A stretch of DNA of 64,000 bases from an uncultured Gammaproteobacteria bacterium. GTDB taxonomy: Bacteria > Patescibacteriota > Patescibacteriia > UBA9934. The position numbers and the translations under genes were made by a program. Each line of letters starts with the position of its first letter. Position 1 is the stretch's first letter. The stretch spans positions 125,440-189,439 of the forward strand of contig CAZTKG010000003.1 of NCBI GenBank assembly GCA_964613815.1, read 5' to 3'. The notes beneath the pieces were generated by a model. It did no database searches, was not told the DNA's origin, and saw only the letters and a program-made list of their open reading frames with translations. Of this stretch, positions 19,147 to 51,400 are shown one piece after another.

Positions 19147-19194
19147 CCATCTCGACCTTGGCGGAGAGATCTCTCCACTGCGGTCGAGATGGGA
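19147..19194. repeat. dispersed nested palindromic repeat, copy 1 (CCATCTCGACC-N5-GGAGAGATCTCTCC-N5-GGTCGAGATGG)
   Basis: Exact 11-bp outer arms and a 14-bp central palindrome, between convergent gatB and miaA. Confidence 0.8.
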
Positions 19195-19209
19195 GTGGAG
19201 GGTTTTTAT

Positions 19210-19941
19210 TTATTTGATGAAATCTCGGACCATTTCCATCACCCCCTCCCCGCTCGTGATCCAAACGATGTTGTCGTTTCGCTTGAACCACGTCATTTGG
19301 CGTTTCGCGTAGTGGCGCGTGTCTCGTTTGATGAGCCTGATGGCTTCTGCTAGATCGTATTCGCCTTCTAGGTGATTGATGATTTGGCGGTAGCCGATAC
19401 CCGTCATGGCTGTGGCGGTTTTTGGGTAGGATTTTAGGAGTGTTTGGACTTCTTCGATGAGACCCTCTTCGATCATTTGATCTACTCGCGCGTTGATGCG
19501 GGCGTATAGCTCCTCTTTTTCTATTTTGATGCCGATTTGGAGAGCTTGATATTTGGATGGGCCTTTTGTGTCAGCGGAATCGAATTGGTAGTTATCAATG
19601 AGCGCTTCTGTGTAGAGGCCGGTGCCTCCGGCGATGATGGGGAGCCCTCCCCTGCTTTTGATTTCGGTGATTTTTGCCTCGGCGAAGTCTTTGAATTCTG
19701 CCGCCGAGTAAGCTTCGTCGGGGTTTCTGATGTCGATGCCCCAGTGCGAGATACCTTCGATGAGCAAAGCGCCCGCTGGATCGAGTGATCCTGCGGGTTT
19801 TGCTGTGCCGATATTCATCCCACGGTAGATCTGGCGGGAATCTGCTGATATGACCTCGCCCTTGAATACCTTTGCGATATTGATGGCGAGCGCGGTTTTG
19901 CCGGCGGCGGTTGGGCCGATGATGGCGACGATTTTCTCCAT
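19210..19941 (-). CDS. miaA: tRNA dimethylallyltransferase
   Basis: P-loop GPTAAGKT, then DSRQIYRGMNIGTAKP. The start was moved to MEKIV. Confidence 0.9.
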   Translation of the reverse strand: MEKIVAIIGPTAAGKTALAINIAKVFKGEVISADSRQIYRGMNIGTAKPAGSLDPAGALLIEGISHWGIDIRNPDEAYSAAEFKDFAEAKITEIKSRGGLPIIAGGTGLYTEALIDNYQFDSADTKGPSKYQALQIGIKIEKEELYARINARVDQMIEEGLIEEVQTLLKSYPKTATAMTGIGYRQIINHLEGEYDLAEAIRLIKRDTRHYAKRQMTWFKRNDNIVWITSGEGVMEMVRDFIK

Positions 19942-19945
19942 ACTC

Positions 19946-21688
19946 CTAGAGCGGGAGCTTTGCGGCCTCCCCTGCCCTGCTTGCAAGCTCCGCCTGTGGG
20001 AATGTGAGATCTTCTTCTTGGCCGAAGACGTTTATGGTGAGATCTCCTCCCTCCGTCTCTCGGTTGCCGATGACGATGGTCCATGGGGTTTTCATCATCG
20101 CTGCGGCTCGGATCTTTTTGCCGATTTTTTCACTTGTGCTGTCTACGGAAACTCGAATGTCGGCCTCTGACAGTTCTGCTGCGAGCTTTTCTGCATGTGG
20201 GATGACGGCGTCGTTTACGGTGACAAGGCGGACCTGCTCTGGAGCGAGCCAGAATGGAAATGCGCCTGCGACGTGCTCGATGAGGACAGAGAGGAAGCGT
20301 TCGATGGAGCCCATGATAGCGGCGTGAATCATGACGATGCGCTCGCTTGATCCGTCTTCTGCGATGCAGCTGAGGTCGAAACTCTCTGGCATAGATCGGT
20401 CGATTTGGATGGTTGCGACTTGCCATTCGCGGCCGATGGAGTCCTTTGCGATGAAGTCGATCTTTGGTCCGTAGAATGCAGCTTCGCCTGGCGCTACTGT
20501 GTAATCTGCGCCGCGTTCTTTGATCCATGCTTCGAACTCGTCTACTGCTGCGTCCCAGGTTTCGATAGAGCCCATGTAGGCGTCCATGTTATCTGGATCG
20601 TGTGTGGACAGGCGGACATTTAGCTCGAAGCCGAATGCGCCGTAGAATGTTTCGATGATGTCCCATATCTTGAGCGCCTCTTCTTTTGCTTGAGACTCTC
20701 GGCAGAAGACGTGGGCATCGTCTTGAGTGATGGAGCGGACGCGTGCGAGACCAGCGAGCTCGCCTGTTTGCTCATCGCGATAAACGACGGTTGTATTTGA
20801 ATAGCGCTGTGGCATGTCTCGGTAGCTCCAGAGCTGGCGTTTGAAGATTTGTGTGTGGTGCGGGCAGTTCATTGGCTTGAGCGCGAACTCGTGGTCTTCT
20901 CGGGTTTTGATGCGGAAGAGGTCGTCTTTGAACTTGTCCCAGTGACCGCTTGTTTCGTAGAGATCTTTTTTGGTGATGTGTGGGATTTCTACTTTTTGGT
21001 AACCTCGGGCGCGGCGCATTTGCCAGACGAACTCGTCTAGAACAGTTCTGAGAACGGTCCCGCGCGGGGTGAAGAGTGGGAGACCGGATCCGACTAGATC
21101 GGAAAAAGTGAATAGGTCTAGTTCTTTGCCGAGTTTTCGGTGGTCTCGTTTTTTCGCCTCCTCGATCATGGCGAGATGGGCCTTTAGTTCTTTTTTGTTG
21201 TTGAATGCGACGCCGTAGATTCGGGTGAGCATTTTGTTCTTTTCGTCCCCTCTCCAGTAGGCGCCGGCGACTTTTGTGAGCTTGAAGCTTTGCGGGTCGA
21301 TTTCTTCTGTTTTTGTGACGTGGGGGCCGAGACAGAGGTTTTCGAACCAGTCAGACTTGTAGAAGCTGACGTTTTTTTCTCCCTTCTCTTTTAGCTCGTT
21401 GATGAGCTCTGTTTTGTAGGGGTCGTTTTTATATTCTTTGAGCGCTGGGTCGAAATCCATACTGTGCTGCTCGAAAGCGATGTTGGATTTGATGATTTCT
21501 CGCATGCGAGCTTCGAGCTTTTCGAAGATTTCCTCCGAGATTGGTTCTGGGAGGTCGTAGTCTTGGTAGAAGCCGTTTTCTATGACTGGACCGACACCGA
21601 GGCCTGCATTTGGATACAGTTCGACAACCGCCATGGTCATGATGTGGGATAGGGAGTGACGATTCTTATATATTTGGTCGTTTTGCAT
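19946..21688 (-). CDS. thrS: threonine--tRNA ligase (lacks the N-terminal TGS domain)
   Basis: HxxxH editing-domain motif, class II motifs and a C-terminal anticodon-binding domain. The start was moved to MQNDQ because the longer N-terminus overlaps the repeat element. Confidence 0.85.
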   Translation of the reverse strand: MQNDQIYKNRHSLSHIMTMAVVELYPNAGLGVGPVIENGFYQDYDLPEPISEEIFEKLEARMREIIKSNIAFEQHSMDFDPALKEYKNDPYKTELINELKEKGEKNVSFYKSDWFENLCLGPHVTKTEEIDPQSFKLTKVAGAYWRGDEKNKMLTRIYGVAFNNKKELKAHLAMIEEAKKRDHRKLGKELDLFTFSDLVGSGLPLFTPRGTVLRTVLDEFVWQMRRARGYQKVEIPHITKKDLYETSGHWDKFKDDLFRIKTREDHEFALKPMNCPHHTQIFKRQLWSYRDMPQRYSNTTVVYRDEQTGELAGLARVRSITQDDAHVFCRESQAKEEALKIWDIIETFYGAFGFELNVRLSTHDPDNMDAYMGSIETWDAAVDEFEAWIKERGADYTVAPGEAAFYGPKIDFIAKDSIGREWQVATIQIDRSMPESFDLSCIAEDGSSERIVMIHAAIMGSIERFLSVLIEHVAGAFPFWLAPEQVRLVTVNDAVIPHAEKLAAELSEADIRVSVDSTSEKIGKKIRAAAMMKTPWTIVIGNRETEGGDLTINVFGQEEDLTFPQAELASRAGEAAKLPL

Positions 21689-21701
21689 ATGCGTCTTTGC
21701 C

Positions 21702-21750
21702 CCATCTCGAGCGAAGTCGAGAGATCTCTCCACTTCGGTCGAGATGGGAA
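21702..21750. repeat. dispersed nested palindromic repeat, copy 2
   Basis: CCATCTCGAGC...GAGAGATCTCTC...GGTCGAGATGG, 14 nt upstream of the thrS start. Confidence 0.8.
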
Positions 21751-21945
21751 TGGAAATTAATAATCAAAAATGAGACCAGCAAAAATGCTGCTCTCGGGAC
21801 CCCTTTTGGGGCGGTTCCACCCGAGTTGTCGGCTTTTTTGATGAAGTCGACCGCTCTTTTAACTGCGCAGACGGGCGTAGTTCCGATCACTCCTGGGTTG
21901 GTGAGGCCCGATCTTGATGATGGTTTTAGGTTAGCGTAGTTTTGG

Positions 21946-22251
21946 TTGACGTGCAAGGGACTTGGTGATAGTCTTCGGGCGCAATGTGGAGGCCAAATGG
22001 CTTATGATAGCGGCGTCTCTCTGTGGAGAGGCTCTGGCGAGGAATACTGCATGAAGCACAAGATCTCGTTCCCGGGCATCAGCTGTCCTGACTGCCGATT
22101 CGAGATCAGGCGCAAGCTCGATCAGGAGCGCGCACTTGCCGAGAAGAAAGCGATTGTTGCCGCAGCTACTTCGGGGGCTACACGTCATCCGTTTGCGGTC
22201 GACGATCGTCAGCGTGAAGCCTGCAGCCCGGACGTTGACTCTCCTTCGTGA
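21946..22251 (+). CDS. hypothetical Cys-rich protein
   Basis: ORF with CPDC and CGG motifs. Weak support. Confidence 0.2.
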   Translation: MTCKGLGDSLRAQCGGQMAYDSGVSLWRGSGEEYCMKHKISFPGISCPDCRFEIRRKLDQERALAEKKAIVAAATSGATRHPFAVDDRQREACSPDVDSPS

Positions 22252-22344
22252 GAACCGCGTGATCGTGGTTCTTTTTTGTTTGAGAAAAAGATGACCGCGC
22301 CCGGGTTAGGGGCGCGGCTGAGAGTTGAGTCGTGTCACCACAGC

Positions 22345-23476
22345 CTAGGGCTTGGCGACGAACTCTCCGATGCGGAGGTTGAACCAGACACTGGGCCGCT
22401 TGGCATGGCTGTGCGTGATGGCGATGATGTTGCCACGGAGGTCCACGTCGGTGATGTTGCCGAGGTGGCCTCCGTACACGGCCTCGACCCACTCGTGCTC
22501 GTGGCGGTCGTAGTACATGATGCCGCCGCCGAACATGCCGCCACGGATCTCGTAGACCTCGACGTTTCTGGGGAGCTGGAGGCGCTGGCTCGGGTAGTAC
22601 TCGAGATCCTGCGTACGGGTGACGGTGCCGTTCTCGTAGGTGAGGATGTAGGACTCCCACTCGTCCTGCATGATGATGTTGGCTCCGTAGGGTGTCTGCG
22701 AGACGCCGACGACCGACCTCGCCGGGGTGGAAGCCGGGGCCGAGGGGGATGTTGGCGTCGACGGTGGCCAGAGTCTGGTAGGGCACGGTTCCGTCGGCGG
22801 CGGCCCAGCACCAGTGTCCGTCGATCTTGGCGAGGTACCGTTCTGGGGTGACATACTCGCCGTAGCCGGTGTAGATACGGAAGTACTGGCCGCCTTCGAT
22901 GTACTCAGTGGGCTCCCCACAGGGGACCTGGAAGCGGCCGGTGAAGAGGTTCAACAGGATCTCTTCGGGGTCGGTGTCGCGGGTCGCCAAGGCGTTCGGC
23001 GTGATGATGGTGCGACCGTGGTGCAAGTCGACCGCCTCGGCATGGCCGGTTCGGGGGCCCTTGTAGTACGCGATGTGCCAGTTGCCGCCCGCGTAGTACA
23101 GCATACCGTTGAAGCTGGCGGCGCCGGTGCTTGGGAGCATCGGGTAGATCGCCATGGTGTCGGTCTTGAGCAGGGGCTCCTGGACCATGCTGCCGGTCTC
23201 GCGGATGGTGACCAGCGCATCGCCTTCGGGGACGTACTGGTGCACGCCGCCTCCGGTGATGAGGAAGGTCTTTCCGTCCATGGTGACGAGGTCTTCGAAG
23301 CTGTCGTGGAGACTGAGGCTGACCGTGGTGCCGCCCGGGAGCTCGAGAGTCTCTTGGCGGACGCGACCGGGAAAGCTGACGTCGTGGATGAAGGTGCCGG
23401 CCGGCGTTTCGATGGTGTCGGCGCGGTCGAAGGGGGATGCGGCGAACGCGGTGGAAAGGGCGAGGGTCAACAGCAT
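22345..23476 (-). pseudogene. high-GC secreted protein gene split by a frameshift near 22700-22760
   Basis: The N-terminal part (signal peptide MLLTLALSTAFAAS...) reads in one frame down to about 22730. The C-terminal part (...TPYGANIIMQDEWESYILTYENGT...VAKP) continues in a second frame to the stop at 22345. The junction contains G/C homopolymer runs. Confidence 0.55.
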
Positions 23477-23530
23477 GAGATCTCCTTGGAGGGGTGGAAT
23501 GGATGCGATAAATCGCGACTGCTTGACGGT

Positions 23531-23563
23531 TTATATTAGCAGGAAAATGGGGTTTTGTCAATG
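23531..23563 (-). promoter_or_regulatory. conserved promoter block (TTGACAAAA-N-ATTTTCCTGCTAATAT) driving the frameshifted secreted-protein gene
   Basis: Minus-strand read cattgacaaaaccccattttcctgctaatataa: -35 TTGACA, 17-nt spacer, -10 TAATAT. Confidence 0.5.
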
Positions 23564-23632
23564 TAATCTTGGCTAAACCTTGACAAAATGCTAGTTTTAT
23601 GGCAAGTTCTCTAGTCTTAACAGGAGACTGAA

Positions 23633-23821
23633 ATGGACTCTCGCTCTTTAATCAATGGCTTTAGTACACCCGCTACCCGACAGTACTGTGCGTCCCACAA
23701 TCTGTTCTACCCGAAGAACGGTTCGTGCGTATTCTGCGATCCTCCGGTGCAACTTGATGATGAGCCTCCTCCGTCCGACCCTTCGCCGAAGAAGGATGTG
23801 GGAACGCAAACGCCGCGATGA
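23633..23821 (+). CDS. hypothetical small zinc-ribbon protein
   Basis: AGGAGA RBS 7 nt upstream, CxxH...CxxC motif, and the repeat element directly downstream. Confidence 0.35.
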   Translation: MDSRSLINGFSTPATRQYCASHNLFYPKNGSCVFCDPPVQLDDEPPPSDPSPKKDVGTQTPR

Positions 23822-23847
23822 ATTTCGCGGCGTGATTTTTTTTGTTT

Positions 23848-23893
23848 CCATCTCGACCTTGTGGAGGGATCTCTCCGCAAGGTCGAGATGGGA
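23848..23893. repeat. dispersed nested palindromic repeat, copy 3
   Basis: CCATCTCGACC-ttgtg-GAGGGATCTCTCC-gcaa-GGTCGAGATGG. Confidence 0.8.
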
Positions 23894-23915
23894 ATTGGAT
23901 GATGCACCAGGTTCG

Positions 23916-25100
23916 CTAATCGATGTCTTTTACGATTATTTTGATGTGGTCTTTGAGCGTTGGGACGCGCTTTAGCCAGAATGGGGTGAAGGAGATGCTC
24001 ACCTCTTCGATCGCGTTTGAGGACTCTAGGATGGTTTCTACTTCTTGCGGCGCGCGGCCGAGGAAGCGTTCTTTGTCTAGGATGTCGGATGCTGTACTGA
24101 TGACTGCGATGCCGTCTAGGTAGACGGAGAGAGATGCCGTGCCTTGGTTTGGGTTTGAGTTTTGGACTTCGATTTGGAGGCCCTCGTCGTTTACTTTGGC
24201 GATTTCGTAGCCTTCTGCGACGCGGGTTTGGAGTTCTGCTCTGGCGTAGTCTGCGACGACTTCTTGGTCGAAGAATACCCCTGTGACAACAACGGAGAGC
24301 GAGACGGTGAAGGCACCTATTTCTGCGCCCGGTTCGCTATCTGCGACTTTTTCTGTGACCTCCGTGGTGTATTCTGCGTAGTCTAGGGCCTCGTCAACGC
24401 GTTCGGCGAGCATGGCTTTTGACTCTTCTAGGACCTCTTCTGTGAGCTCTTCTACAGCTGATTCTAGATCTGCTTCAGTGAGGGTTCGGATATAGACGAG
24501 GCCGCCGACCATTTGTTCAACGCTGACAGCGTAGACTTCTTGCTGACGTGACTCGTTAAGGCCTGGGATCGTGAATTGACTTGGACCGATTTCGCCGTCT
24601 AGACCTGGCTGGTCTGCGTGCGCGATGACGTCGATGGATCCGTTTGCTGGGACGGTTGTGCCTTCATCTAGGCGGAATAGGATGCCCTCTTCTGATAGCA
24701 AGCGTGTGGTTGCGACGAGCTGCTGGTCTTCGCCTGACTCGTTGATGAGCGTGACGAGGCCGCCCGCCTTTTGTTCCACTGCTTCAGCGCCTTCTGATGA
24801 GAGGGTGAAGGTCTTTCCTTTTGAAAAGGTGTCTTCGATGACGATTCCGGCGAGTTGGTTTGTGGATGGTGGGTTTGCGACCTCTACGGTGATGTTGGTG
24901 GAGACGACCTTTTCTGCTGGGTCGATCTTGATCGTGGCTTTGGATACCGATAGATACAAGACGATGATGAGCAATAAAAGCGCCCCTGCGACGAATAGGA
25001 GGGCGATTTTTTGGTAGATTCTGAGTGATCTTGAAAGCGGCTTTCCGCTTGATCTGGAGGATTTTCTTGCTTTGCTTAGAGACATACGCAAAATAGTCAC
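23916..25100 (-). CDS. hypothetical membrane-anchored extracytoplasmic protein
   Basis: Basic N-terminus, one TM helix, then a large acidic domain. Confidence 0.5.
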   Translation of the reverse strand: MTILRMSLSKARKSSRSSGKPLSRSLRIYQKIALLFVAGALLLLIIVLYLSVSKATIKIDPAEKVVSTNITVEVANPPSTNQLAGIVIEDTFSKGKTFTLSSEGAEAVEQKAGGLVTLINESGEDQQLVATTRLLSEEGILFRLDEGTTVPANGSIDVIAHADQPGLDGEIGPSQFTIPGLNESRQQEVYAVSVEQMVGGLVYIRTLTEADLESAVEELTEEVLEESKAMLAERVDEALDYAEYTTEVTEKVADSEPGAEIGAFTVSLSVVVTGVFFDQEVVADYARAELQTRVAEGYEIAKVNDEGLQIEVQNSNPNQGTASLSVYLDGIAVISTASDILDKERFLGRAPQEVETILESSNAIEEVSISFTPFWLKRVPTLKDHIKIIVKDID

Positions 25101-25162
25101 GTGAGTGAACCTGATTGATGGTTTTATTATAGCGGATTGTGGGGGGATGATCTAGGCTCGCC

Positions 25163-28684: not shown

Positions 28685-28726
28685 ATCACATTTTAGATTA
28701 GCAAAGATGTGGGAAAGAAAAAAGCC

Positions 28727-32443: not shown

Positions 32444-34837
<2,394 letters not shown>

Positions 34838-37039: not shown

Positions 37040-37190
37040 GATTGTCGAGGGTGTATTGTCCTATTTCCCATCCTGAGTCGAGGGATAAATACCCTCGACG
37101 GAAGGATCTCGTTATGCAGTTGTGCCGCGCGGCATGGGATCCTTCCGTTGGTCGGCTGGCGCTCTCCCTCCTCAGGATGGGAGAGAAAAC
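37040..37190. repeat. structured intergenic region with nested inverted repeats
   Basis: Arm pairs cccatcctgag/ctcaggatggg, gtcgaggg-ataaata-ccctcgac and ggaaggatc/gggatccttcc, plus a gccgcgcggc palindrome. Lies between murD and rseP. Confidence 0.5.
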
Positions 37191-43903: not shown

Positions 43904-43924
43904 TTTTGGTGTGAATCTTTTTGA

Positions 43925-44746
43925 TTGGCACTTATGGCGAATGCGCATGCTTTCAAGCGCGAACTGAACCAGAAGAAACACATTAAACGCCTTCAATCGA
44001 GCACGCAGCCGCTTCGCGCGATAGATATGAATCCTACTAGCCGCGCAAGCTCTGGAGAGCGTGCTTTTCGCGAATCTACGCATGCGGCGAAGATGTCCGC
44101 TCAACGAGCTCAGATTCATGCGCAGTCACTTGGACATTCTCAGCTACAACCTCACCCCGAGATTCGTCAAGACGGCAATGTCCACTACCTCCCTGCCCCC
44201 TCGAGACCAGCGCCGCCACAACAGCATGAAATGCGCGCTACAGATCCTCGCCGCGGTGCCGCTCGAAGACGTCGGAATGCTGATCGTGAGAACAAACGAC
44301 GCCTTCTTGCCACCGAGAAAAACGTCGCTGAGATGAAGAGGAACATGACGCGAAAGATTATTTGGGGAGCTGGAGGCCCTGGCGGCGCCGCGGAATGCGA
44401 GGGAGCTGCTGGAGGAACGTGGTTTGGTCTTGGAGGGCTTGCAACGGTCTATCAGGCTGGAAAGGCATTTCTCAAGTCCAAAGATGATCCTGATCTTTTT
44501 GGTAAAGATGGTGTTTTGACGTTTTTTGAACCACCAAGACCTGACCCGAATGATGGCTTTAGTTATGTGGTTTATCTCTATGCGATCGGCTGGACGTTTG
44601 CCGTTGTTGCCGCACTGCTTGTTCTGATTTTTTTCTTGACCCTTCTTGCCTTCTCGATTCTTGTCTACTCTGGCATGATGGCATCGATCTTCGGAATCCT
44701 TACATCCTTTCTCTCACCATTTGTTGAAATTATCTTCTTCCTTTAG
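43925..44746 (+). CDS. hypothetical protein with Gly-rich region and C-terminal TM helices
   Basis: ORF with an RBS and a hydrophobic C-terminus. Confidence 0.4.
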   Translation: MALMANAHAFKRELNQKKHIKRLQSSTQPLRAIDMNPTSRASSGERAFRESTHAAKMSAQRAQIHAQSLGHSQLQPHPEIRQDGNVHYLPAPSRPAPPQQHEMRATDPRRGAARRRRNADRENKRRLLATEKNVAEMKRNMTRKIIWGAGGPGGAAECEGAAGGTWFGLGGLATVYQAGKAFLKSKDDPDLFGKDGVLTFFEPPRPDPNDGFSYVVYLYAIGWTFAVVAALLVLIFFLTLLAFSILVYSGMMASIFGILTSFLSPFVEIIFFL

Positions 44747-44748
44747 CT

Positions 44749-45951
44749 ATGTTTACTTCTCGATGGAAAATTGCTCTTGCCGTCCTTGGCCTCATTGCTT
44801 TTGCCATGCTTTTGGGGGGATTTTTTTATTGGCTCCTGTTTTCGAAGACGCCTGTTGTGACGCCCGTTGATGAGATCGTTGTTGATGATGGCACCGCGTC
44901 GCTTCCAGGCTCTGGAGATGCTCAAGAGCGGGTATCTACCCCTTCTGATAGCGCTCCTGCAGCGGAGAGTGATGGACTGCCCGTCAGTGACGCTGTTCTT
45001 TTGACCACCTCCCCTGTTGAGTCCCCTGTTGCAACCGGCCTTGGTGAAATGGCGTTTTATGACCCTAGCGATGGACGATTTTATCGCATTGATGAGAACG
45101 GTAATCTCGTTGCACTTTCCAGCGAAACCTTTCCAGATGTTGAGGACGTGACGTTTAGTACCGATGTTGACATGGCTGCCATCGAGTTTCCTGATGGAAC
45201 AAACATTTTGTATGACTTTGCGTCAGACGAGCAGACAACGCTTCCGAGTCACTGGGAGGACTTCACCTTCTCTCCTGAGAGTGAAATTGTTGCTAGCAAG
45301 AATATCACTTCCAATCCTGATCTGAATTCTATTGTTGTTACATCGACTGATGGGACGCATACGCAGGTTCTCGCAGGGCTTGGGACCAATGCGGGAGACG
45401 TTACACTTGACTGGTCGCCGACTGGAGATGTGATTGGGTATGCACAGACTGGAAGTACACAGAGTGGATTTGGGCGTGAGCAGATTTATTTGATTGGAAA
45501 CGATGGGGAGCCTGCGGGGTCCATTGTGGTTGAAGGTCTGTATTTTGATCCTATTTGGTCACCTAGTGGGGAGACGATTTTGTATTCTATTACGGATGAT
45601 TCTGCCGATGGTCGGCCGACGATTTGGTCGGTTGATGGGAATGGAGCGGACGCTGGGGGTGATCGGACTCGGTATGGGGTTCAGACGTATGTTGAAAAAT
45701 GTTCGTTTGCGACTGAGACGATTGTGTATTGCGCGGTTCCGCGAGAGCTTCCGGATAATGCTGGTTTTGATGTTAGCCTCGCTGATGCGCCGGATGATGT
45801 TTATAAGTTGAATTTGACGACTGGACAGACAACACTTGTCGCTGTTCCCTCTCGTGATTATCAGATGTTTAATGTCTCTGTTCCTGAGGATCAATCTATT
45901 CTTTACTTCACCGACGAGGCAGGTCGCCTTCATCGTTTAGAACTTGATTAG
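44749..45951 (+). CDS. membrane-anchored beta-propeller protein (TolB/PD40-like repeats)
   Basis: N-terminal TM helix and repeated DWSPTGD / WSPSGE PD40-like motifs. Confidence 0.5.
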   Translation: MFTSRWKIALAVLGLIAFAMLLGGFFYWLLFSKTPVVTPVDEIVVDDGTASLPGSGDAQERVSTPSDSAPAAESDGLPVSDAVLLTTSPVESPVATGLGEMAFYDPSDGRFYRIDENGNLVALSSETFPDVEDVTFSTDVDMAAIEFPDGTNILYDFASDEQTTLPSHWEDFTFSPESEIVASKNITSNPDLNSIVVTSTDGTHTQVLAGLGTNAGDVTLDWSPTGDVIGYAQTGSTQSGFGREQIYLIGNDGEPAGSIVVEGLYFDPIWSPSGETILYSITDDSADGRPTIWSVDGNGADAGGDRTRYGVQTYVEKCSFATETIVYCAVPRELPDNAGFDVSLADAPDDVYKLNLTTGQTTLVAVPSRDYQMFNVSVPEDQSILYFTDEAGRLHRLELD

Positions 45952-45953
45952 TT

Positions 45954-46562
45954 ATGAAGCACCCGAAAAGTTTTCTTGCTGTCTTTGGTCTTTCTGCGCT
46001 GGCCCTTGTGATTCTTTTGACTCGGCCGGATGCGTCTGATTTGTTTACCATTGATGAGCCTCGGATTGGAGATGACCCGTTTTATGGCGCTGAAGATGCT
46101 GCTCTGACTGTTGTGCTTTTTGGGGACTTTGAGAGTGATGGGACACGCGATGCTGTAGAGTCTTTGCGGGATATTGTGGATGCGAATGACGACATTCGAC
46201 TTGTTTGGAAGGATTTTCCAAATGCTTCGCTGCACCCCGATGCGGTGAAGGCCGCTGTTGCTGCGCAGTGTGCGCATCGTCAGGATGTGTTCTGGGAGTA
46301 CGCAGCGTATCTTTTGGATAATCAGAACGCGTTTGGTGATGATCTTTACTATACGGTCGGTGATACGCTTGAGTTGAGGGCTCGGGCATTTGCGAACTGT
46401 GTTGAAAATGACGAGACCCTTGAGCTTATTGATGAGAGTTACCGAGAGGGGCTTGCGCTAAAGATTCTTAGCACTCCGACGATTTATATTGGCTCCGAGC
46501 GCTTCGCTGGTGAGATGACGGATCGTGATATTGCCTTGTTTATTGACGAACAACGACCATGA
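45954..46562 (+). CDS. DsbA-like thioredoxin-fold protein lacking the CxxC active site
   Basis: Signal peptide and DsbA-like fold pattern, but VVLFGDFESDG replaces the F.C..C motif. Confidence 0.5.
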   Translation: MKHPKSFLAVFGLSALALVILLTRPDASDLFTIDEPRIGDDPFYGAEDAALTVVLFGDFESDGTRDAVESLRDIVDANDDIRLVWKDFPNASLHPDAVKAAVAAQCAHRQDVFWEYAAYLLDNQNAFGDDLYYTVGDTLELRARAFANCVENDETLELIDESYREGLALKILSTPTIYIGSERFAGEMTDRDIALFIDEQRP

Positions 46563-47911
46563 GACTTTTTGCGACGATTGCGATTGGGCTCTTTTTGATG
46601 CCCGCGGTGGCGTTTGGGGCACTTGCTTCTGAGTGTGATGATTCGCCGCTTTGCTCTTGTGATGATTATTCTGTTCCAAATAGTGGTGTTCAGGAGTGCT
46701 GGGATGAGTGTGAAGGCAGCCTTCAGTGCACGATTGATGGAAGTATCACCTCCGTTGAATCAACCGAATGCGACCCAGATGCCGATGAAACGTCTTTTGA
46801 TTGTTATTCCGCAGCGAGTTCTGATGGAGAAGATTCAGAGGCATCGAGCACTACTGAAGAAAAGAAAGATCATGACGCGCCCAGTTTGAGTATCCATATT
46901 CCCGGATTAGACCTCTCCCCTTCCACGGCCAGCGGTTCAAGTATTGAGGTCAATTATATTGGCCAGTATGTTAATGCCCTTTACTCATGGCTGATTGGTG
47001 CCGGCTCACTTATCGCCGTCGTTGTTCTGATGGTTAGCGGTGTACAGTACATGATGGCGCGTGGAAATGCCTCGCTTGTTACCCAGGCGAAGGAACGGAT
47101 GACGAATGCCGTTATTGGGCTCGTGCTGCTCTTGGGAGCCTATGCGATTGCGAACTTCATTGATCCTGCGACGGTGAATTTTGATACGCTTAAGCTTGAC
47201 TCTATTGGTAAGATGCTTGATAAAAGTACTTCTGGAGAAGAGGGAGCTTCAGGCGGAGGGGATCAAACGAAGTGTGATGAGGTCCTCGCCAAGGCCTCGA
47301 CGGAGGGGTCCTGCCCAATTGATAACTTTATGGCGCCAGCGTCTGGCGTGGGACTGTCGTGCAATTACCACTTTAGTGATGCGGATTATAATTACAAGGA
47401 TCAGAAAAGCTTGGACTACCCAGGCATTTGGGGCACCCCCCTTCTCGCCTCGTTTGATGGAGAGGTTGAGTATGTTGAAGGAGGAGGGAGTAACCGCTGC
47501 GGTAATCAGATCAATCTCAAGGGTAGTGGTATCTCTATTATTTACTGTCATGCGAAAAACTTTGTTGATAGTCAAGGTAATATGCGTGAATCTGGAACCA
47601 AGGTTGTTCAGGGCGAAGTCCTTGGACATTTGGGCGGAGTTGCTTGCGGCGGTCAAGCAGATATTCCAAAGCATTGGAAGTATCGCGATAGAATGCTTAA
47701 TGGACCATCTGGCACGGCATGTAAAACGGTTAACTCCCTTGAGACCTGCAGTTGTCAAACTTGGCAACATAGCGGCCATACGACCGGCTCCCATGTTCAT
47801 ATTGAACTGAAATATGGCGGCAATCTCCTTACCTGCGTTGCAAATGGACTAGATACTGCTGAAGCGACAGGTGATACCGGCCAAGCCGCTCCGGTGGAGG
47901 GTGATCATTGA
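46559..47911 (+). CDS. secreted Cys-rich protein with a central hydrophobic hairpin and C-terminal M23 (LytM) peptidase domain
   Basis: Signal peptide, a Cys-rich acidic region, two adjacent hydrophobic helices, and M23 motifs HSGHTTGSHVHIE. Confidence 0.65.
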   Translation: MRLFATIAIGLFLMPAVAFGALASECDDSPLCSCDDYSVPNSGVQECWDECEGSLQCTIDGSITSVESTECDPDADETSFDCYSAASSDGEDSEASSTTEEKKDHDAPSLSIHIPGLDLSPSTASGSSIEVNYIGQYVNALYSWLIGAGSLIAVVVLMVSGVQYMMARGNASLVTQAKERMTNAVIGLVLLLGAYAIANFIDPATVNFDTLKLDSIGKMLDKSTSGEEGASGGGDQTKCDEVLAKASTEGSCPIDNFMAPASGVGLSCNYHFSDADYNYKDQKSLDYPGIWGTPLLASFDGEVEYVEGGGSNRCGNQINLKGSGISIIYCHAKNFVDSQGNMRESGTKVVQGEVLGHLGGVACGGQADIPKHWKYRDRMLNGPSGTACKTVNSLETCSCQTWQHSGHTTGSHVHIELKYGGNLLTCVANGLDTAEATGDTGQAAPVEGDH

Positions 47912-47917
47912 TCGTCT

Positions 47918-49198
47918 ATGTATTCTTGTTCACATTGTGATTCTCAGTCGTTGAAGTGGCAGGGGCGTTGCTCTGAATGCGGGAAATGGGGGACGCTTCA
48001 GGAGGAGGCTAGGACTGGGAAGAAATCTACATCCAAACGGAGGGCGCCTGCAGCGCCTGTTTTGGATCTTGGGAGCGCGGTGATTGGGACGGAGACGCGG
48101 ACTTCTACGAAGATTGGAGAGCTCGATCGGGTCTTGGGAGGCGGGCTTGTTGCGGGGAGCGTGACGCTACTTGCTGGTGAGCCAGGGATTGGGAAGTCTA
48201 CGCTTACGGCTCAGCTTTCTTCGTTGTTTGGTTCTGATAAGGCGAAGACCCTTTATGTGAGTGGCGAGGAGTCTCAGGCGCAGGTCTTGATGCGGTTTCA
48301 GCGGCTTGGGATCGTGCCTGATGCGGTGGTGTTTAGTGGGGCTACGGATGTTGGGTCGATTGTTGCGGCGGCTGATGAGGTCTCCCCTGCTCTTCTTGTG
48401 ATCGATTCGATTCAGACGATGATTCCTGAAGGAATTGATAGTATGCCGGGGACGCCGACAGCGGTTCGAACGGCGACGGCGCAGCTGATTGGGCATGCGA
48501 AAACGTCTGGGATGCCGGTGGTTTTGATTGGTCAGGTGACGAAGGAGGGGTCTATTGCGGGACCGAAGACGCTTGAGCATTTGGTTGATACGCTTTTGAC
48601 GCTTGAGGGGGATCGGCATTCTAGTTATCGACTACTGCGCGCGAGTAAGCATCGGTTTGGAGGGACGGAAGAGGTTGGGATTTTTGAGATGATGGAGCGC
48701 GGGATGGTTGCGGTGGAGAATCCTAGTTCTCGGTTTTTGGAGGAGCGGCAGGATGTGACCGGGAGTGCGGTGACGTGTTTGATGGAGGGGTCTCGGCCCA
48801 TTTTGGTGGAGATTCAGGCGCTTTGTGAGCAGAGTCAGTATCCGAATCCTTTGCGGCGTGCGACGGGGTTTGATAGTGGGAGGCTGCAGATGCTTTTGGC
48901 GATCTTGAATAAACGCGCGGGGCTGAAGACGCATGGACTGGATGTGTATGTAAATGTGGTTGGCGGGGTGAAGATTAAGGAGACGGCGGCGGATTTGGCG
49001 GTTTGTGCGGCGATTTTGAGTTCTGTGAAGGATAAGGCGCTGCCGATGAAGGGGGTTTTGATTGGGGAGCTTGGGCTCAGTGGTGAGGTTCGGAGTGTGA
49101 CGCGGATAGCATATCGGGTGAAGGAGGCGAAGCGGTTGGGGTTTGATGCGGTGGAGGTGAAGCATGTGCGGGATTTGAAGGGACTGCTTGGGCAATAA
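47918..49198 (+). CDS. radA: DNA repair protein RadA/Sms
   Basis: N-terminal C4 zinc finger, RecA-like P-loop GEPGIGKST and a Lon-like C-terminal domain. Confidence 0.95.
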   Translation: MYSCSHCDSQSLKWQGRCSECGKWGTLQEEARTGKKSTSKRRAPAAPVLDLGSAVIGTETRTSTKIGELDRVLGGGLVAGSVTLLAGEPGIGKSTLTAQLSSLFGSDKAKTLYVSGEESQAQVLMRFQRLGIVPDAVVFSGATDVGSIVAAADEVSPALLVIDSIQTMIPEGIDSMPGTPTAVRTATAQLIGHAKTSGMPVVLIGQVTKEGSIAGPKTLEHLVDTLLTLEGDRHSSYRLLRASKHRFGGTEEVGIFEMMERGMVAVENPSSRFLEERQDVTGSAVTCLMEGSRPILVEIQALCEQSQYPNPLRRATGFDSGRLQMLLAILNKRAGLKTHGLDVYVNVVGGVKIKETAADLAVCAAILSSVKDKALPMKGVLIGELGLSGEVRSVTRIAYRVKEAKRLGFDAVEVKHVRDLKGLLGQ

Positions 49199-49232
49199 AA
49201 AACAACGAGTGATGAGCTCGTTGTTTTTTTAT
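49198..49232. terminator. bidirectional terminator between radA and recG
   Basis: aaaaaacaacgag-tgatg-agctcgttgttttttt. Confidence 0.55.
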
Positions 49233-51301
49233 TCGAAATGGACTTCTTCAATGTATTCTTCGACGCGTTCTGATAATGATGGCCACTTTTTTAGGGTTGG
49301 GTCGTCTGTGAGAATCCATTCTGCATGGTCTTTTGCCTTGTAGAGAAGCTCTCTGTCGGCGTAGGTGCCGAGTTTGAAGGCTTCGAAGCCGGACTGCTCT
49401 GTGCCGAAGATATTTCCTGGGCCGCGGAGTTCTAGGTCCTTGTCTGCGAGCTGGAAGCCATTTTGGCACCCGACAACGGCGATGAGGCGCTTGCGAGCGA
49501 GTTCTGATAGGCGGCCGGATGGATGGAGGTAGCAGTAGCTTTGGTGGTCGCCCCGCCCTACCCTTCCTCGGAGTTGGTGTAGCTGCGCGAGACCGAAGCG
49601 TTCGGCTCCTTCGATGAACATGACGGTGGCGTTTGGGATGTCTACGCCGACCTCTACCACCGTGGTGGAGATGACCATGTCTAGTTCGCCTGAAGAGAAT
49701 TTTTCCATGATCTCGTCTTTTTCCATGGTTTTGAGCTTTCCGTGGAGAATTCCGAGCTTGTATTTTTTGAATGGGCCTTTTTTGAAGATCGTGTAGGTTT
49801 CGGTGACAGATTTTACTCCGAGCGCGTCTGATTCTTCGATGAGGGGGCAGACGACGAAGACTTGGCGGCCGGCGTCCATTTCTTCTTTGATGCGCTTGTG
49901 AGCCTGCGGTTCTTGCCCCTGTTCGACGAGGAAGGTTTCGATTTTCTTGCGGCCTGCAGGGTATTCGTCTAATAGTGATCGGTCTAGGTCGCCGTAGAGG
50001 ACGAGAGCTAGTGATCTCGGGATTGGGGTTGCGGTCATGCTGAGGAGATGGGGGATGCCGTCTTCGTCGCCTTGGCGATCTTTGAGGGCTCGGCGCTGTT
50101 TGACGCCGAAGCGGTGCTGTTCGTCGACGATCATGAGACCTAGGCGGTTGAAGAGGACGCCTTCTGAGAGGAGTGCGTGGGTTCCGATGGCTAGGTCTAT
50201 TTTTCCATCTTTTAGTGCGTCAAGCATTTGTTTTTTGGTGACCTGCTTGCCTTTGATGCGGCGCTTTGTGCGTGTGAATAGGCCTATCGTGAGCATGTCG
50301 CCGAAGATTTTTTGTAAGCCTTTTGCGTGTTGGTCGGCAAGGATTTCTGTTGGGGCGAGGAAGGCGGTTTGCCAGGTTGAAGATGCGGCGTTTACTGCTG
50401 CGAGCGCTGCGACGACGGTCTTCCCTGTTCCAACGTCCCCCTCTAGCAACCTATTCATTGGGGTTTCCTTTTCTAGATCTTGGATGATGGACCAGCTGGA
50501 TCTTTTTTGGGCATCGGTGAGTTCGAATGGAAGAGCCTTTACCGCCTTTGTGACGGCAGGTTTGTTGAATGGGATTTTTGATGATTTTTGCTTTTGGAGC
50601 GCTCGGCGGACGCGGCGGTGGAGGATTTGATGGAGGAAGAACTCGTCGAATTTAAGACGATCTAGGGCGCGTTCCTGCTTTTCTGTTGAGGATGGGAAAT
50701 GCATCTCCTTGATTGCATCGTGGAGGGGCATGAATTCCTCGGACTTGATAATGTCTTGCGGCATCCATTCTTCGACCTCTTCGATGCCTTTTGTCGCCTC
50801 CTCTGCCAGGGCTCGGCGCATTTTTTGGGTGATTGCGCCGGTAAGTTTGTAAACCGGGAGGATTCTACCGGTTTGCTTGACGCTCTGCTGCTTGCCGAGG
50901 ACTTCGTAGATTGGGTTTACGAGCGAAAGGCCGTAGCGGTCGTCTACCTTTCCTGATAGGGACACGATCACGCCTGGTTTTAGGGTTTTTGTGAGGAAGC
51001 CTTGGTGGAACCAGACGGCTTTGATGGAGCCGGTACCGTCTTCGACCATGGCTTGTGTGATGGTCATTCGCGGGTTGTTTTTGGCGCGGCGGTTTTCGAT
51101 AGTTGCGATCGCGCCTTGGATCGTAATGCGCTCCCCTGCTGATACGCTGCTGATTTCTGTCTTTTTTGAGAGATCGTCGTAACGGAATGGGAAATCTAAT
51201 AAGGCATCTCTTAGGGAGACGATGCCTAGGCGCGCGAAATCTTTGGCGCGGGCGGCGCCGATTCCTTTTGCTCTTTGGATGTTTTTGTCGAGAAGAGGCA
51301 T
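49229..51301 (-). CDS. recG: ATP-dependent DNA helicase RecG
   Basis: Wedge domain, DEAD-box helicase motifs (GDVGTGKT, DEQHRFG) and a TRG motif. Confidence 0.95.
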   Translation of the reverse strand: MPLLDKNIQRAKGIGAARAKDFARLGIVSLRDALLDFPFRYDDLSKKTEISSVSAGERITIQGAIATIENRRAKNNPRMTITQAMVEDGTGSIKAVWFHQGFLTKTLKPGVIVSLSGKVDDRYGLSLVNPIYEVLGKQQSVKQTGRILPVYKLTGAITQKMRRALAEEATKGIEEVEEWMPQDIIKSEEFMPLHDAIKEMHFPSSTEKQERALDRLKFDEFFLHQILHRRVRRALQKQKSSKIPFNKPAVTKAVKALPFELTDAQKRSSWSIIQDLEKETPMNRLLEGDVGTGKTVVAALAAVNAASSTWQTAFLAPTEILADQHAKGLQKIFGDMLTIGLFTRTKRRIKGKQVTKKQMLDALKDGKIDLAIGTHALLSEGVLFNRLGLMIVDEQHRFGVKQRRALKDRQGDEDGIPHLLSMTATPIPRSLALVLYGDLDRSLLDEYPAGRKKIETFLVEQGQEPQAHKRIKEEMDAGRQVFVVCPLIEESDALGVKSVTETYTIFKKGPFKKYKLGILHGKLKTMEKDEIMEKFSSGELDMVISTTVVEVGVDIPNATVMFIEGAERFGLAQLHQLRGRVGRGDHQSYCYLHPSGRLSELARKRLIAVVGCQNGFQLADKDLELRGPGNIFGTEQSGFEAFKLGTYADRELLYKAKDHAEWILTDDPTLKKWPSLSERVEEYIEEVHFE

Positions 51302-51352
51302 TTGATTTAGTATTTTATCTCAGTTTTTGCGAAAAACCAAGCTTGTATTGCT

Positions 51353-51400
51353 CTATCTCGACCGAAATGAGGAGATCTCTCCACGTTGGTCGAGATGGGA
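51353..51400. repeat. dispersed nested palindromic repeat, copy 5
   Basis: tATCTCGACC-gaaatga-GGAGATCTCTCC-acgtt-GGTCGAGATGG. Confidence 0.75.

Follow-up and report, generated by a model that had tools for sequence, protein, structure and literature searches.

A short nested palindrome recurs between the genes of the window (the whole 64-kb stretch of DNA analysed here), and part of it also lies inside pheT; we asked what kind of element this is and what could have spread it. The host is a marine, Uhrbacteria-like member of the candidate phyla radiation (CPR). The first-pass annotation had described a dispersed REP/MITE-like palindromic family with one copy embedded in pheT, and our analysis agrees with that description. 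With moderate confidence, we regard the window copies as cargo-less REP/REPIN-like palindromic DNA elements whose candidate partner is a GIY-YIG nuclease, a link that we infer for the window genome.

Anatomy of the repeat

The window contains four nested palindromes of 44-46 bp and one half copy in pheT (Table 1). All five sites hold the sequence originally described, at a level far above chance. With ≤1 mismatch, GGTCGAGATGG occurred 12 times in the window versus 1.71 ± 1.06 times in shuffled sequences (0 of 100 shuffles reached 12), and with ≤2 mismatches the central GGAGAGATCTCTCC occurred 5 times versus 0.36 expected. A search of the window with an nhmmer profile of the unit recovered exactly nine units (four dimers and one single) with E values of 2e-10 to 6e-7; the next match had an E value of 0.2. 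Two members had been missed in the first-pass annotation, namely a 14-aa insertion in pheT and an intergenic unit at 37069-37115. All seven window members lie between 19 and 51 kb, and the other 41 kb examined did not contain any. Copy 1 is identical in three independent assemblies (two from JGI and one from Logan, in which one contig ends within the copy), which excludes an artefact of assembly or adapters.

The palindromes are built as inverted dimers of a unit of approximately 27 nt, TCCC-ATCTC-GA-CC-N4-5-GG-A-GAGAT-CTC, and the 48-bp form corresponds to two inverted units that meet tail to tail. The unit comprises a tag (TCCC or TGTC), a stem of 5 bp, a GA/A internal loop and 2 bp, with A-T and T-A as the first pairs, a loop of 4-5 nt (GCAGT, GAAGT, TTGC, AACGT, TTGGC, TTGT or GAAAT) and a CTC tail. 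The nine window units start with (T)CCC-AT or CT-AT and end in CTC or CCC. The stems of the five minus-strand units are identical, whereas their partner units have diverged, and the five ATCTC-type copies are all oriented alike, the GC skew of their strand being positive throughout. Measured from arm to arm (34225-34255 for the half copy), the copies end 2-3 nt short of the ends first drawn, because the GGGA(R) that follows the right arm is conserved as well. The BglII core (AGATCT) ascribed to the family is replaced by GGATCT in copy 3 and intact in the other four. The spacers between the arms do vary, as was noted, yet under a constraint: in any one copy, the two spacers are largely complementary to each other (GAAGT/ACTTC, TTGT/GCAA, TTGGC/ACTGC), and four pairs show two-sided compensatory change. 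No direct repeat indicative of a target-site duplication was visible at the four window copies.

Based on folding predictions, the dimers reach -31 to -42 kcal/mol as RNA (z -4.4 to -9.5) and -15 to -23 kcal/mol as DNA; a lone unit is barely structured (-3.2 kcal/mol, z 0.24). Because the single unit is strictly conserved despite this lack of structure, its conservation points to sequence-specific recognition rather than to hairpin stability. The unit is free of stop codons in all six frames and can thus be translated inside proteins.

Table 1. Repeat copies and adjacent features in the 64-kb window.
Feature	Position	Strand	Sequence or structure	Site
Copy 1	19147..19192		Dimer, CCATCTCGACC-TTGGC-GGAGAGATCTCTCC-ACTGC-GGTCGAGATGG	Convergent gap between gatB (+, ends 19090) and miaA (-, ends 19210), 13 nt past T-run of gatB terminator
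gatB intrinsic terminator	19100..19133	+	Hairpin and T-run	Directly upstream of copy 1
thrS	19946..21688	-	Threonyl-tRNA synthetase	Copy 2 in leader region
Copy 2	21702..21747		Dimer, spacers fully complementary (GAAGT/ACTTC), one G.G mismatch in outer stem	Upstream of thrS (-), 14 nt from first ATG at 21688
Intrinsic terminator of small + ORF	23810..23845	+		Directly upstream of copy 3
Copy 3	23848..23891		Dimer, 4-nt spacers (TTGT/GCAA), almost perfect 24-bp hairpin	Convergent gap, 4 nt past terminator T-run of + ORF 23633-23821, before end of - gene 23916-25100
pheT	32444..34837	-	Phenylalanyl-tRNA synthetase beta subunit, 797 aa	Hosts two in-frame units
Second in-frame relative	33059..33100 (about)	-	GTCATCCTGAGCGAACGAAGTGAGTCGAACGGA = VILSERSESNG	pheT, within 14-residue insertion SSSVILSERSESNG
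Half copy	34225..34257	-	Single unit, GA strand of unit = sense strand	pheT
Related single unit	37069..37115	+	ATCCT subtype, hairpin inserted in loop: CCCATCCTGAG[TCGAGGGATAAATACCCTCGA]CGGAAGGATCTC	Between M50 peptidase and Mur ligase genes (both -)
Copy 4	51353..51398		Dimer, most diverged left half: CTATCTCGACC-GAAAT-GAGGAGATC	Divergent gap between recG (-, start 51301) and + strand ORF, left-adjacent to four DnaA-box-like 9-mers (51408-51483)

Placement of the window copies

Copy 2 does lie at the distance from the thrS start that was first reported (Table 1). The thrS open frame continues into this copy, up to a GTG at 21733; the JGI gene call has a length of 564 aa, which would put the start 48 nt downstream of the first ATG. 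Predicted folding energies as RNA were -35 kcal/mol for copy 2 (z -5.6 and -6.8) and -41.6 kcal/mol for copy 3 (z -9.5), and the related unit between the M50 peptidase and Mur ligase genes reached -11.1 kcal/mol as DNA (z -3.2). No T-run follows the hairpins, and the elements are therefore not intrinsic terminators. The DnaA-box cluster said to adjoin copy 4 is present as four DnaA-box-like 9-mers, albeit with no accompanying switch in GC skew.

In-frame copies in coding sequences

The half copy is identical over 30 nt, including the loop, to the right half of copy 2. Within the pheT ORF it reads CCC ATC TCG ACC GAA GTG GAG AGA TCT CTG and encodes PISTEVERSL in frame, as the first-pass annotation had stated. 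This peptide was not found in any of 120 PheT homologues, which indicates that it was acquired secondarily. It is nevertheless not a clean insertion: the region is a linker of hypervariable length in which the window PheT is only ~2 aa longer than its nearest homologues. Two homologues (P0092 and P0113) carry unit-like peptides in the same linker.

The 14-aa insertion that contains the second relative is clean: of 21 aligned orthologues, 20 lack it and one has a 5-residue insert (alignment columns 636-649). The unit at this site has a TGTC tag (33092), belongs to the ATCCT subtype and has an extended loop. In-frame units also occur in LeuRS, Dus and ArgRS genes of other CPR, one in each. The best PheT match to the window protein is 48% identical, a distance at which no empty-versus-filled site, target duplication or recent movement can be demonstrated for the window copies.

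Distribution and placement in other genomes

We identified the pattern GATCTCTCC-N4-5-GGTCGAGATGG in at least 86 stretches of the genome collection, versus ~2 expected by chance according to our own estimate. Among the matches listed, hosts include Anaerococcus (Firmicutes), Doudnabacteria and other CPR, Riflebacteria, Balneolaceae, Thiotrichaceae and others, and many genomes hold several copies. Across these distant phyla the 27-base unit is nearly unchanged. The pattern was not found in viral contigs, plasmids or phages, and the exact gap-free dimer is rare, with one further match in 241 million metagenome records. A single RAYT-like match, at L010, is located 2 kb away from a match that is probably fortuitous.

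Elsewhere, the layout consists of a left unit, a variable apical insert and a right unit, with arms 0 to >300 nt apart; an Anaerococcus unit contains an insert of ~80 nt, and other units have extended loops. Units mostly favour the 3' ends of genes. Among 66 placeable units, 21 lie in convergent, 40 in co-directional and 5 in divergent gaps, and the co-directional units show no bias in orientation relative to transcription (21 versus 19). In other phyla, U.G-compatible differences occur between the two arms. At the gathering score, Rfam 15 reported only tRNAs in the window and in 18 loci of other phyla, and a permissive Rfam scan of copy 1 yielded sub-threshold noise only.

These placements bear on the proposal, also raised in the first-pass annotation, that the palindrome is a protein-binding site. 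An operator of a dimeric DNA-binding regulator for thrS, recG and their neighbours would account for the nested dyad symmetry, for copy 2 just upstream of thrS and for copy 4 in a divergent promoter region near DnaA-box-like sites. However, terminators in convergent gaps precede two of the four full copies (1 and 3), half and variant copies lie within coding sequence, units occur in frame in several genes and phyla, and the unit accompanies unrelated genes of unrelated phyla, mostly at their 3' ends and with the variable arm distance described above. We therefore set the binding-site proposal aside and consider an operator the most improbable of the readings weighed here.

The element might instead be a structured RNA that acts on transcripts and is conserved because it stabilises 3' ends, provides an RNase III site, assists terminators or attenuates translation in the thrS leader; several observations speak for this reading, but we judge it improbable. 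The hairpins are very stable, spacer changes are compensatory, gene 3' ends are enriched and divergent promoter regions depleted, and REPs in E. coli have 3'UTR effects; the co-varying spacers and G.U-compatible pairs, together with the U.G-compatible arm differences of other phyla, would also fit selection at the RNA level. Against this, the single units are the best-conserved part but are not significantly structured, their orientation is unbiased with respect to transcription, the hairpins lack the T-run of an intrinsic terminator, translated copies lie inside essential genes, and neither the window nor the 18 loci of other phyla matched an Rfam family. A functional RNA would also leave the nuclease gene between the arms (see below) unexplained.

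Association with a GIY-YIG nuclease gene

At two loci (L076 and L020), a GIY-YIG ORF occupies the apical position between units. Among eight GIY-YIG homologues fetched without regard to the motif, five are enclosed by both units; one of the other three has whole elements on its flanks, one a remnant and one none. In several lineages the polarity is fixed as 5'-CCATCTCGA..GAGAGATC - ORF - GAGATTTCTC..TCGAAATGG-3'. At four loci (L076, L094, L100 and L102) the ORF is preceded by an ATCTC-type unit and followed by an inverted ATTTC-type unit; variant units enclose it at L095 and L098. In the related genomes of L094 and L100, the nuclease locus is kept between a GtrA-like gene and dnaX. One Doudnabacteria genome encodes two paralogues, and each has a cargo-less subfamily of its own with the same ends and loop-proximal sequence, an arrangement that we liken to RAYT genes flanked by cognate REPs. 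We propose the unit-flanked GIY-YIG gene as a REPtron-like cassette; the term does not denote an established family.

The flanked protein belongs to the UPF0213 family (PDB 1ZG2, 1YWL). It is of the YhbQ type, ~93 aa long and without an attached DNA-binding domain, and the catalytic Tyr, Arg, His, Glu and Asn residues of the GIY-YIG protein are invariant. To our knowledge, bacterial UPF0213 proteins have no established function, and a literature search likewise returned no relevant match. Neither the 64-kb window nor the 9 kb upstream of it yielded a GIY-YIG gene or another candidate for a nuclease or transposase, and the window copies are thus cargo-less.

The first-pass annotation had advised looking for an associated RAYT/IS200-like gene, and classical REPs or REPINs mobilised by a RAYT (Y1 HUH, IS200 type) encoded elsewhere in the genome would match the general REPIN picture of short imperfect palindromes, inverted dimers and gene ends. 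The common orientation of the five ATCTC-type copies on a strand of positive GC skew could likewise reflect a single-strand, replication-linked process. TBLASTN with IS200 TnpA and E. coli RAYT queries (approximate sequences) nevertheless found no such gene in the window, in the 9 kb upstream or beside units at the 86 loci. Moreover, the units carry no GTAG or GTGG tag, the genes that units actually flank encode GIY-YIG proteins, and the closest described repeats, of the CGTC type, are reported without RAYT association (PMC3733652). A RAYT is accordingly a highly improbable mobiliser of these units.

We favour an element that acts and spreads at the DNA level and that would be tolerated where it does little harm, such as at gene 3' ends, especially just past terminators, and in length-variable linkers on protein surfaces. 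The enzyme that recognises and propagates it would most likely not be a RAYT-type transposase, the best candidate being the small UPF0213/YhbQ-type GIY-YIG nuclease. Host repair or copying after the nuclease has cut at or within the palindrome would then spread both units and cargo. We infer that such a nuclease mobilises the units and that the window genome encodes one. GIY-YIG enzymes, as far as we know, only cut DNA, and we know of no mechanism that would let such an enzyme place a 27-nt unit at a new site. An established copy, with its very stable hairpin, may have incidental effects on neighbouring transcripts, for example in the thrS leader.

A GIY-YIG homing gene that invades pre-existing palindromes could equally explain the association. 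In that case, the repeats would be an older, independent family spread by host recombination, by replication slippage or fold-back synthesis, or by another enzyme, and the GIY-YIG genes would be free-standing homing genes that target the palindrome loop as a safe landing site. REPs are targeted by some IS elements in much this way. Within one genome, the ORF in the apical loop is all that distinguishes filled from empty copies; unit loops also hold other inserts, such as the one in Anaerococcus; a DUF559 nuclease gene lies within a different palindrome; and most units, for example those of Anaerococcus, have no nuclease gene nearby. However, the polarity of the ORF relative to the asymmetric unit pair is fixed across several lineages, and the matching of units to individual paralogues suggests co-evolution over opportunistic insertion. 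This reading would also leave the spread of the units and their conservation across phyla unexplained. We regard this alternative as possible but rather unlikely, and prefer a nuclease that propagates the units themselves.

Comparison with known systems

The window elements resemble MITEs (Correia/NEMIS and Coxiella MITEs) in being bounded by inverted repeats, dispersed and sometimes intragenic, and in having longer relatives that carry an ORF between the same ends; the counterparts of MITE terminal inverted repeats are the inverted units of ~27 nt around an insert of 0 to >300 nt. No target-site duplication was visible at the window copies. Unlike in MITEs, the related ORF encodes a nuclease rather than an IS-family transposase, and each "terminal repeat" is an independent unit that is also found singly. 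Like Rickettsia palindromic elements (RPE), they form stop-free in-frame inserts in essential genes that are translated as extra surface peptides; whereas RPE-1 measures 100-150 bp and is confined to Rickettsia, the inserts described here measure 27-63 nt and lie in aminoacyl-tRNA synthetases and Dus of CPR.

The flanked gene resembles free-standing GIY-YIG homing genes (phage T4 seg) and the UPF0213/YhbQ/Slx1 branch in that it encodes a small single-domain protein with an intact catalytic set, has many intergenic copies and leaves filled and empty versions of a site in one genome. It differs in that its target would be a palindromic repeat found at dispersed sites, not a unique gene, and in that no DNA-binding domain is attached to the protein.

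Several features recall REP/REPIN-RAYT systems: the palindromes are non-autonomous and dispersed, often occur as inverted doublets and lie at gene 3' ends, and a genome may hold several enzyme paralogues, each with its own repeat subfamily. As in REPtrons, in other genomes a small nuclease gene lies between two inverted cognate units, and its locus is kept in two related genomes (L094 and L100). The flanked gene, however, encodes a GIY-YIG (UPF0213) protein and not a Y1 HUH transposase, the GTAG tag is absent, and the sequence of the unit has been kept across phyla, in contrast to the usual restriction of REPs to particular lineages. Because GIY-YIG enzymes, unlike RAYTs, form no covalent DNA intermediate, the chemistry of spread would have to differ.

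In our best reading, the element is closest to the "orphan" CGTC-tagged REPs, a super-family that includes Neisseria dRS3 and Rickettsia RPE-4 and RPE-6 (Di Nocera, De Gregorio and Rocco 2013, PMC3733652). In those repeats inverted dimers predominate, intragenic copies occur, including in tRNA synthetase genes, and no transposase is known; the stem has 8-9 contiguous bp starting with A-T and T-A, the loop 4-5 nt and the tail 3 nt (mostly CCA), and the authors noted that their search possibly missed bulged variants (PMC3733652). Our elements share the start of the stem, the loop length, a short unpaired tag at one end with a 3-nt tail at the other, inverted dimers able to fold into one long hairpin, convergent and co-directional intergenic sites, intragenic copies that include tRNA synthetase genes, a distribution over several phyla and the lack of an associated transposase. 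CGTC REPs also have the tag variants TGTC and CCTC, of which TGTC is present here in the pheT unit (33092) and in L090. Our elements differ in the TCCC tag of the five ATCTC-type units, in an interrupted stem (5 bp, GA/A internal loop, 2 bp) in place of 8-9 contiguous pairs, in a CTC or CCC tail rather than CCA, and in their hosts, which are CPR, Firmicutes and others rather than mainly Alphaproteobacteria. Finally, whereas no partner enzyme is reported for CGTC REPs, a GIY-YIG gene lies between the units in related genomes.

Repeat copies in the window

We confirmed the sequences of all five repeat copies located by the first-pass annotation, four palindromic dimers and one half copy within pheT. 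Allowing ≤1 mismatch, the arm GGTCGAGATGG occurs 12 times in the window against 1.7 occurrences expected, and the central palindrome occurs 5 times at ≤2 mismatches against 0.36 expected. A profile derived from the ~27-nt unit identified exactly nine units in the window, arranged as four pairs and one single (E values of 2e-10 to 6e-7); the next-best match had E = 0.2. Two further relatives of the ATCCT subtype, which differs from the main ATCTC-type form, were identified by a relaxed pattern search. The 9 kb of sequence extending the window to the left contained no further copy.

The window's contig derives from JGI sample 3300007504 and related source samples, 3300008627 among them, and copy 1 is unchanged in three independent assemblies. 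We rejected an adapter or assembly artefact because the copies differ from each other by compensated substitutions, sit in-frame in genes, and recur across independent assemblies; the copies are real genomic sequence that acts as a repeat in assembly. A Logan contig (SRR8062317) terminates exactly inside copy 1 (…GGTCGAGATGGG), consistent with an assembly graph broken at the repeat. Assemblies can break at unit sites.

Positions of repeat copies and associated features in the window and in two loci from other genomes
Sequence	Feature	Position	Strand	Description
Window	Copy 1	19147-19192		Convergent gatB/miaA gap; starts 13 nt beyond the gatB terminator
Window	Copy 2	21702-21747		First thrS ATG 14 nt away
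Window	ORF	22178-23476	-	Holds the two hairpins below in its 5'-distal part
Window	Terminator-like hairpin	22250-22273	+
Window	Terminator-like hairpin	22318-22294	-
Window	62-aa ORF	23633-23821	+	TTGACA-type promoter-like site, AGGAG ribosome-binding site, clean intrinsic terminator (region 23570-23845); three cysteines, Pro/Asp-rich tail
Window	Copy 3	23848-23891		Convergent gap, 4 nt beyond the terminator of the small 62-aa ORF
Window	pheT	32444-34837	-
Window	ATCCT-subtype relative	~33059-33100		In pheT; GTCATCCTGAGCGAACGAAGTGAGTCGAACGGA = VILSERSESNG
Window	Half copy	34225-34257	-	In pheT; encodes PISTEVERSL
Window	ATCCT-subtype relative	37069-37115		Intergenic; extra hairpin in loop; DNA -11.1 kcal/mol, z -3.2
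Window	Copy 4	51353-51398		Gap between recG and another ORF
Window	Four DnaA-box-like 9-mers	51408-51483		TTATCCCCA, TTATCCACG, TTTTCCACA (on - strand), TTATACACA; within 76 bp, directly after copy 4, recG divergent gap
L020 (Balneolaceae chromosome OZ245822.1)	Tandem array	1760-3320		At least 12 elements, ~125 nt each
L079 (Doudnabacteria)	DUF559 (Vsr-like) nuclease gene	6300-6800		Flanked by another pair of inverted hairpins, TTCTTCTCCCCTTGCGGGAGAAGATG ... CATCTTCTCCCGTCAAGGGAGAAGATG

Anatomy and predicted folding of the repeat

The 44-46 bp palindromes are inverted dimers, each made up of two ~27-nt units. On the - strand the unit reads TCCC-ATCTC-GA-CC-(4-5 nt)-GG-A-GAGAT-CTC and, as read from the sequence, is free of stop codons in all six frames. 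Stem sequence is identical in the five - strand units, including the one in pheT, which vary in the loop alone; each + strand partner has 1-3 substitutions. The spacers were initially described as N5 segments that vary between conserved arms; they do vary, but not freely, as the left spacer largely complements the right spacer within each copy. In the dimers, four pairs have changed on both sides with pairing kept. This complementarity and compensation indicate that the dimers arose as, or are kept as, true long hairpins.

Folded as RNA, the dimers have energies of -31 to -42 kcal/mol (z -4.4 to -9.5), and as DNA -15 to -23 kcal/mol. A lone unit has no significant structure (-3.2 kcal/mol, z 0.24) but is better conserved than any other part, from which we infer sequence-specific recognition.

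Genomic context in the window

A role as intrinsic terminators was rejected: with no T-run behind them, the elements are not called by the terminator scan. Terminator-like hairpins were observed on both strands within the - strand ORF at 22178-23476, which may in truth be shorter than these coordinates.

Across positions 1-64000, every 4-kb window has positive GC skew (0.02-0.25), despite the many - strand genes between 19 and 39 kb, and the stretch as a whole appears to belong to a single replichore. The DnaA-box-like cluster beside copy 4 shows no change in the sign of the skew and has no adjoining dnaA gene. A replication origin at this cluster was rejected based on the positive skew throughout the window and the number of DnaA boxes, which is at chance level for the window as a whole (10 against 9.6 expected).

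The first-pass annotation had proposed a dispersed REP/MITE-like family. This proposal is supported, and we interpret the window palindromes with high confidence as REP/REPIN-like palindromic repeats.

In-frame copies in pheT and other genes

The best database relatives of the window PheT are from Uhrbacteria and other Patescibacteria, with ≤48% identity. We aligned the window protein with 21 homologues. PISTEVERSL, encoded in-frame by the half copy, cannot be called a simple insertion because it falls in a linker of very variable length, and the window protein is only ~2 residues longer there than its closest relatives. A second segment of the window PheT, SSSVILSERSESNG, is a clean 14-residue insertion that is missing in 20 of the 21 orthologues, the other having a 5-residue insert. 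Neither peptide occurs in any of 120 PheT homologues. In two of the homologues (P0092 and P0113), the PISTEVERSL linker holds peptides typical of related units, SFAGAQDDR and VILSKAKDP, which makes this linker a recurrent, permissive landing place.

Within genomes of candidate-phyla-radiation (CPR) bacteria, we also identified the element in-frame in genes for LeuRS (TISNEVRNPSQERSLPSVEMG), Dus and ArgRS (RSLHYGRDGE), and the LeuRS copy is read in the same frame as PISTEVERSL. The 27-nt unit is translated in PheRS, LeuRS, ArgRS and Dus of CPR bacteria, so repeat invasion contributes to the protein insertions typical of reduced CPR genomes. Annotation pipelines will take such units for spurious peptides, for example PISTEVERSL or VILSERSESNG.

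Distribution across phyla

We scanned one genome per species (596 Gb) with the pattern GATCTCTCC-N4-5-GGTCGAGATGG; this analysis identified matches in at least 86 stretches, against ~2 expected by chance by our own estimate (20 fixed bases, two strands, two spacings). Among the matches listed, a minority are fortuitous coding matches, and multi-copy genomes include Anaerococcus species, Doudnabacteria, Uhrbacteria, Riflebacteria, a Balneolaceae chromosome, Thiotrichaceae and Pedobacter. At many loci a right unit is preceded, 12 to ~125 nt upstream, by a left unit (YCATYTCGASC-loop-SGAGARATC), so that the general layout elsewhere is left unit, variable apical insert and right unit, and the window copies are the minimal, insert-free form. 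The stems vary by transitions only (ATCTC, ATTTC, ACTTC, ATCTT), matched by changes on the opposite side. In the Balneolaceae tandem array, each element consists of left unit, insert and right unit, with ~30-nt spacers between elements.

Among 66 units located between long ORFs, 40 are in co-directional gaps (divided 21 to 19 by orientation), 21 in convergent gaps and 5 in divergent gaps. Unit placement is REP-like, without preference for one transcript strand.

Orthologous loci of Anaerococcus differ in unit number, and the loop of one unit holds an ~80-nt insert. At one orthologous site, A. rubeinfantis and A. jeddahensis (L062 vs L016) differ by a single unit versus ~525 nt of extra repeat modules, and in the expanded species two units share the same ~80-nt loop insert. 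This comparison of orthologous sites revealed no clean empty site that would define a target. That the unit is nearly identical in a marine Uhrbacteria-like organism and in human-associated Anaerococcus calls for an explanation; horizontal spread and a strong recognition constraint are candidates.

A metagenome scan of a collection without the window's own contig returned one match to the exact dimer, downstream of a ychF-like gene (L090). Aligning copy 2 against plasmids and phages with BLAST, and scanning viral contigs with the pattern, returned nothing, giving no hint that the element came from a phage or plasmid.

Association with GIY-YIG nuclease genes

We scanned 150 ORFs located ≤900 nt from units in other genomes against Pfam. 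Most are unrelated housekeeping genes; among nuclease families, only GIY-YIG (2 ORFs) and DUF559 (1 ORF) recurred. No nuclease gene was seen in the window. In one Doudnabacteria locus (L076), a 93-aa ORF exactly occupies the space between two units; the genome also has a sister locus where this element lacks the ORF. Pfam assigns the encoded protein a GIY-YIG domain, and among solved structures it is closest to the UPF0213 proteins BH0048 and EF2693. The catalytic Tyr, Arg, His, Glu and Asn do not vary among 25 homologues. A second case is a GIY-YIG gene in the Balneolaceae array, where one element is interrupted after its left unit. The main rival to a partnership between enzyme and repeat takes the GIY-YIG gene for a homing gene and the palindrome loop merely for its landing site.

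As an unbiased test, we searched for homologues of the L076 protein and retrieved eight with their flanks. Five (L094, L095, L098, L100 and L102) lie between a left unit and a right unit; the remaining three comprise one flanked by whole elements, one with a remnant and one without units. L076, L094, L100 and L102 share one polarity: the start codon is preceded by an ATCTC-type unit, and the stop codon is closely followed by an ATTTC-type unit in inverted orientation. The arrangement recurs with variant units in L095 and L098. By our count on the alignment, 24 of 27 positions of the window's - strand unit match the unit found upstream in these cassettes. In several homologues from the databases, an N- or C-terminal extension is a translated unit. 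Within one Doudnabacteria genome, the paralogues P0121 and P0142 are each matched, at their ends and in loop-proximal sequence, by a separate subfamily of cargo-less elements, which have no ORF between the units. L094 and L100 are both located between a GtrA-like gene and dnaX.

In Buchananbacteria (L095/L096), the unit-flanked cassette lies between pheS and pheT; in the window, pheT itself holds two units. The DUF559 gene in Doudnabacteria has its own inverted hairpin pair, and further small nuclease genes may likewise be partnered by palindromes. Beside the cassette of a Chloroflexi locus (L098) are classical-type hairpins, CCATTCCGGCGAAAGCCGGAATCC, which link the ATCTC-type units to the commoner ATTCC-type repeats, which are read as spurious peptides such as IPAKAGIQ.

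A role at the RNA level may arise as a side effect, notably in the thrS leader; however, such a role leaves unexplained the absence of strand bias, the coding copies and the nuclease gene. The small GIY-YIG nuclease, whose association with the units is consistent, polar and paralogue-specific, is a concrete, bench-testable enzyme candidate, and the association also suggests a first function for UPF0213/YhbQ.

Comparison with known repeat systems

The window repeats are a genuine family of a known general kind, and REP-type repeats are among the commonest non-coding elements of bacteria. Three features raise their interest: the units are almost identical in distant phyla, they lie repeatedly in-frame within essential CPR genes, and they show a specific, testable association with a nuclease family.

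An associated tyrosine transposase, which the first-pass annotation had suggested looking for, did not appear: using approximate query sequences, we found no IS200/RAYT gene in the window, in the 9 kb upstream, or beside units elsewhere. The units also have no GTAG tag. Rfam searches at the gathering threshold (the window and 18 loci of other phyla) and a permissive scan of copy 1 returned only tRNAs and noise; the element is therefore not a described RNA family. By inspection of the sequence, the defining bulges or core motifs of a kink-turn, a hammerhead and a bulge-helix-bulge intron are absent, and these candidates were rejected. Literature searches by sequence string returned primers or nothing. 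We found no paper tying GIY-YIG, COG2827, UPF0213 or YhbQ to REP-like repeats, MITEs or palindromes, within an incomplete coverage of the literature that makes an earlier description possible.

The closest described group is the CGTC-tagged REPs, one of two large REP super-families, for which no mobilising enzyme is known (PMC3733652). The window units share with them AT-initial stems, 4-5 nt loops, a tag and tail, and a mostly inverted-dimer arrangement; also common to both are intragenic copies, including in tRNA synthetase genes, occurrence in several phyla and, explicitly for the CGTC REPs, no associated transposase (PMC3733652). However, the window units have a TCCC tag (TGTC in two relatives), an interrupted stem and a CTC tail, and because of these departures we regard them as a variant of the CGTC REPs rather than a member.

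The GIY-YIG loci resemble a REPtron, in which a RAYT gene is flanked by cognate REPs, in that the nuclease gene lies between two cognate inverted units, subfamilies are paralogue-specific, and the locus is retained in related genomes. On this likeness we propose the UPF0213-type GIY-YIG nuclease as a putative partner enzyme of the units, a step in which we infer mechanism from association. A tentative reading, which we consider possible though not probable, is that the window palindromes would be non-autonomous members of a widespread, undescribed REPIN-RAYT-like partnership, with a UPF0213/YhbQ-type GIY-YIG nuclease as the dedicated enzyme instead of a tyrosine transposase. If so, it would give UPF0213/YhbQ, a very large protein family of unknown role, its first function, account for the short palindromes that decorate essential proteins in reduced CPR genomes, and supply the missing partner of the 'orphan' CGTC-like REP super-family.
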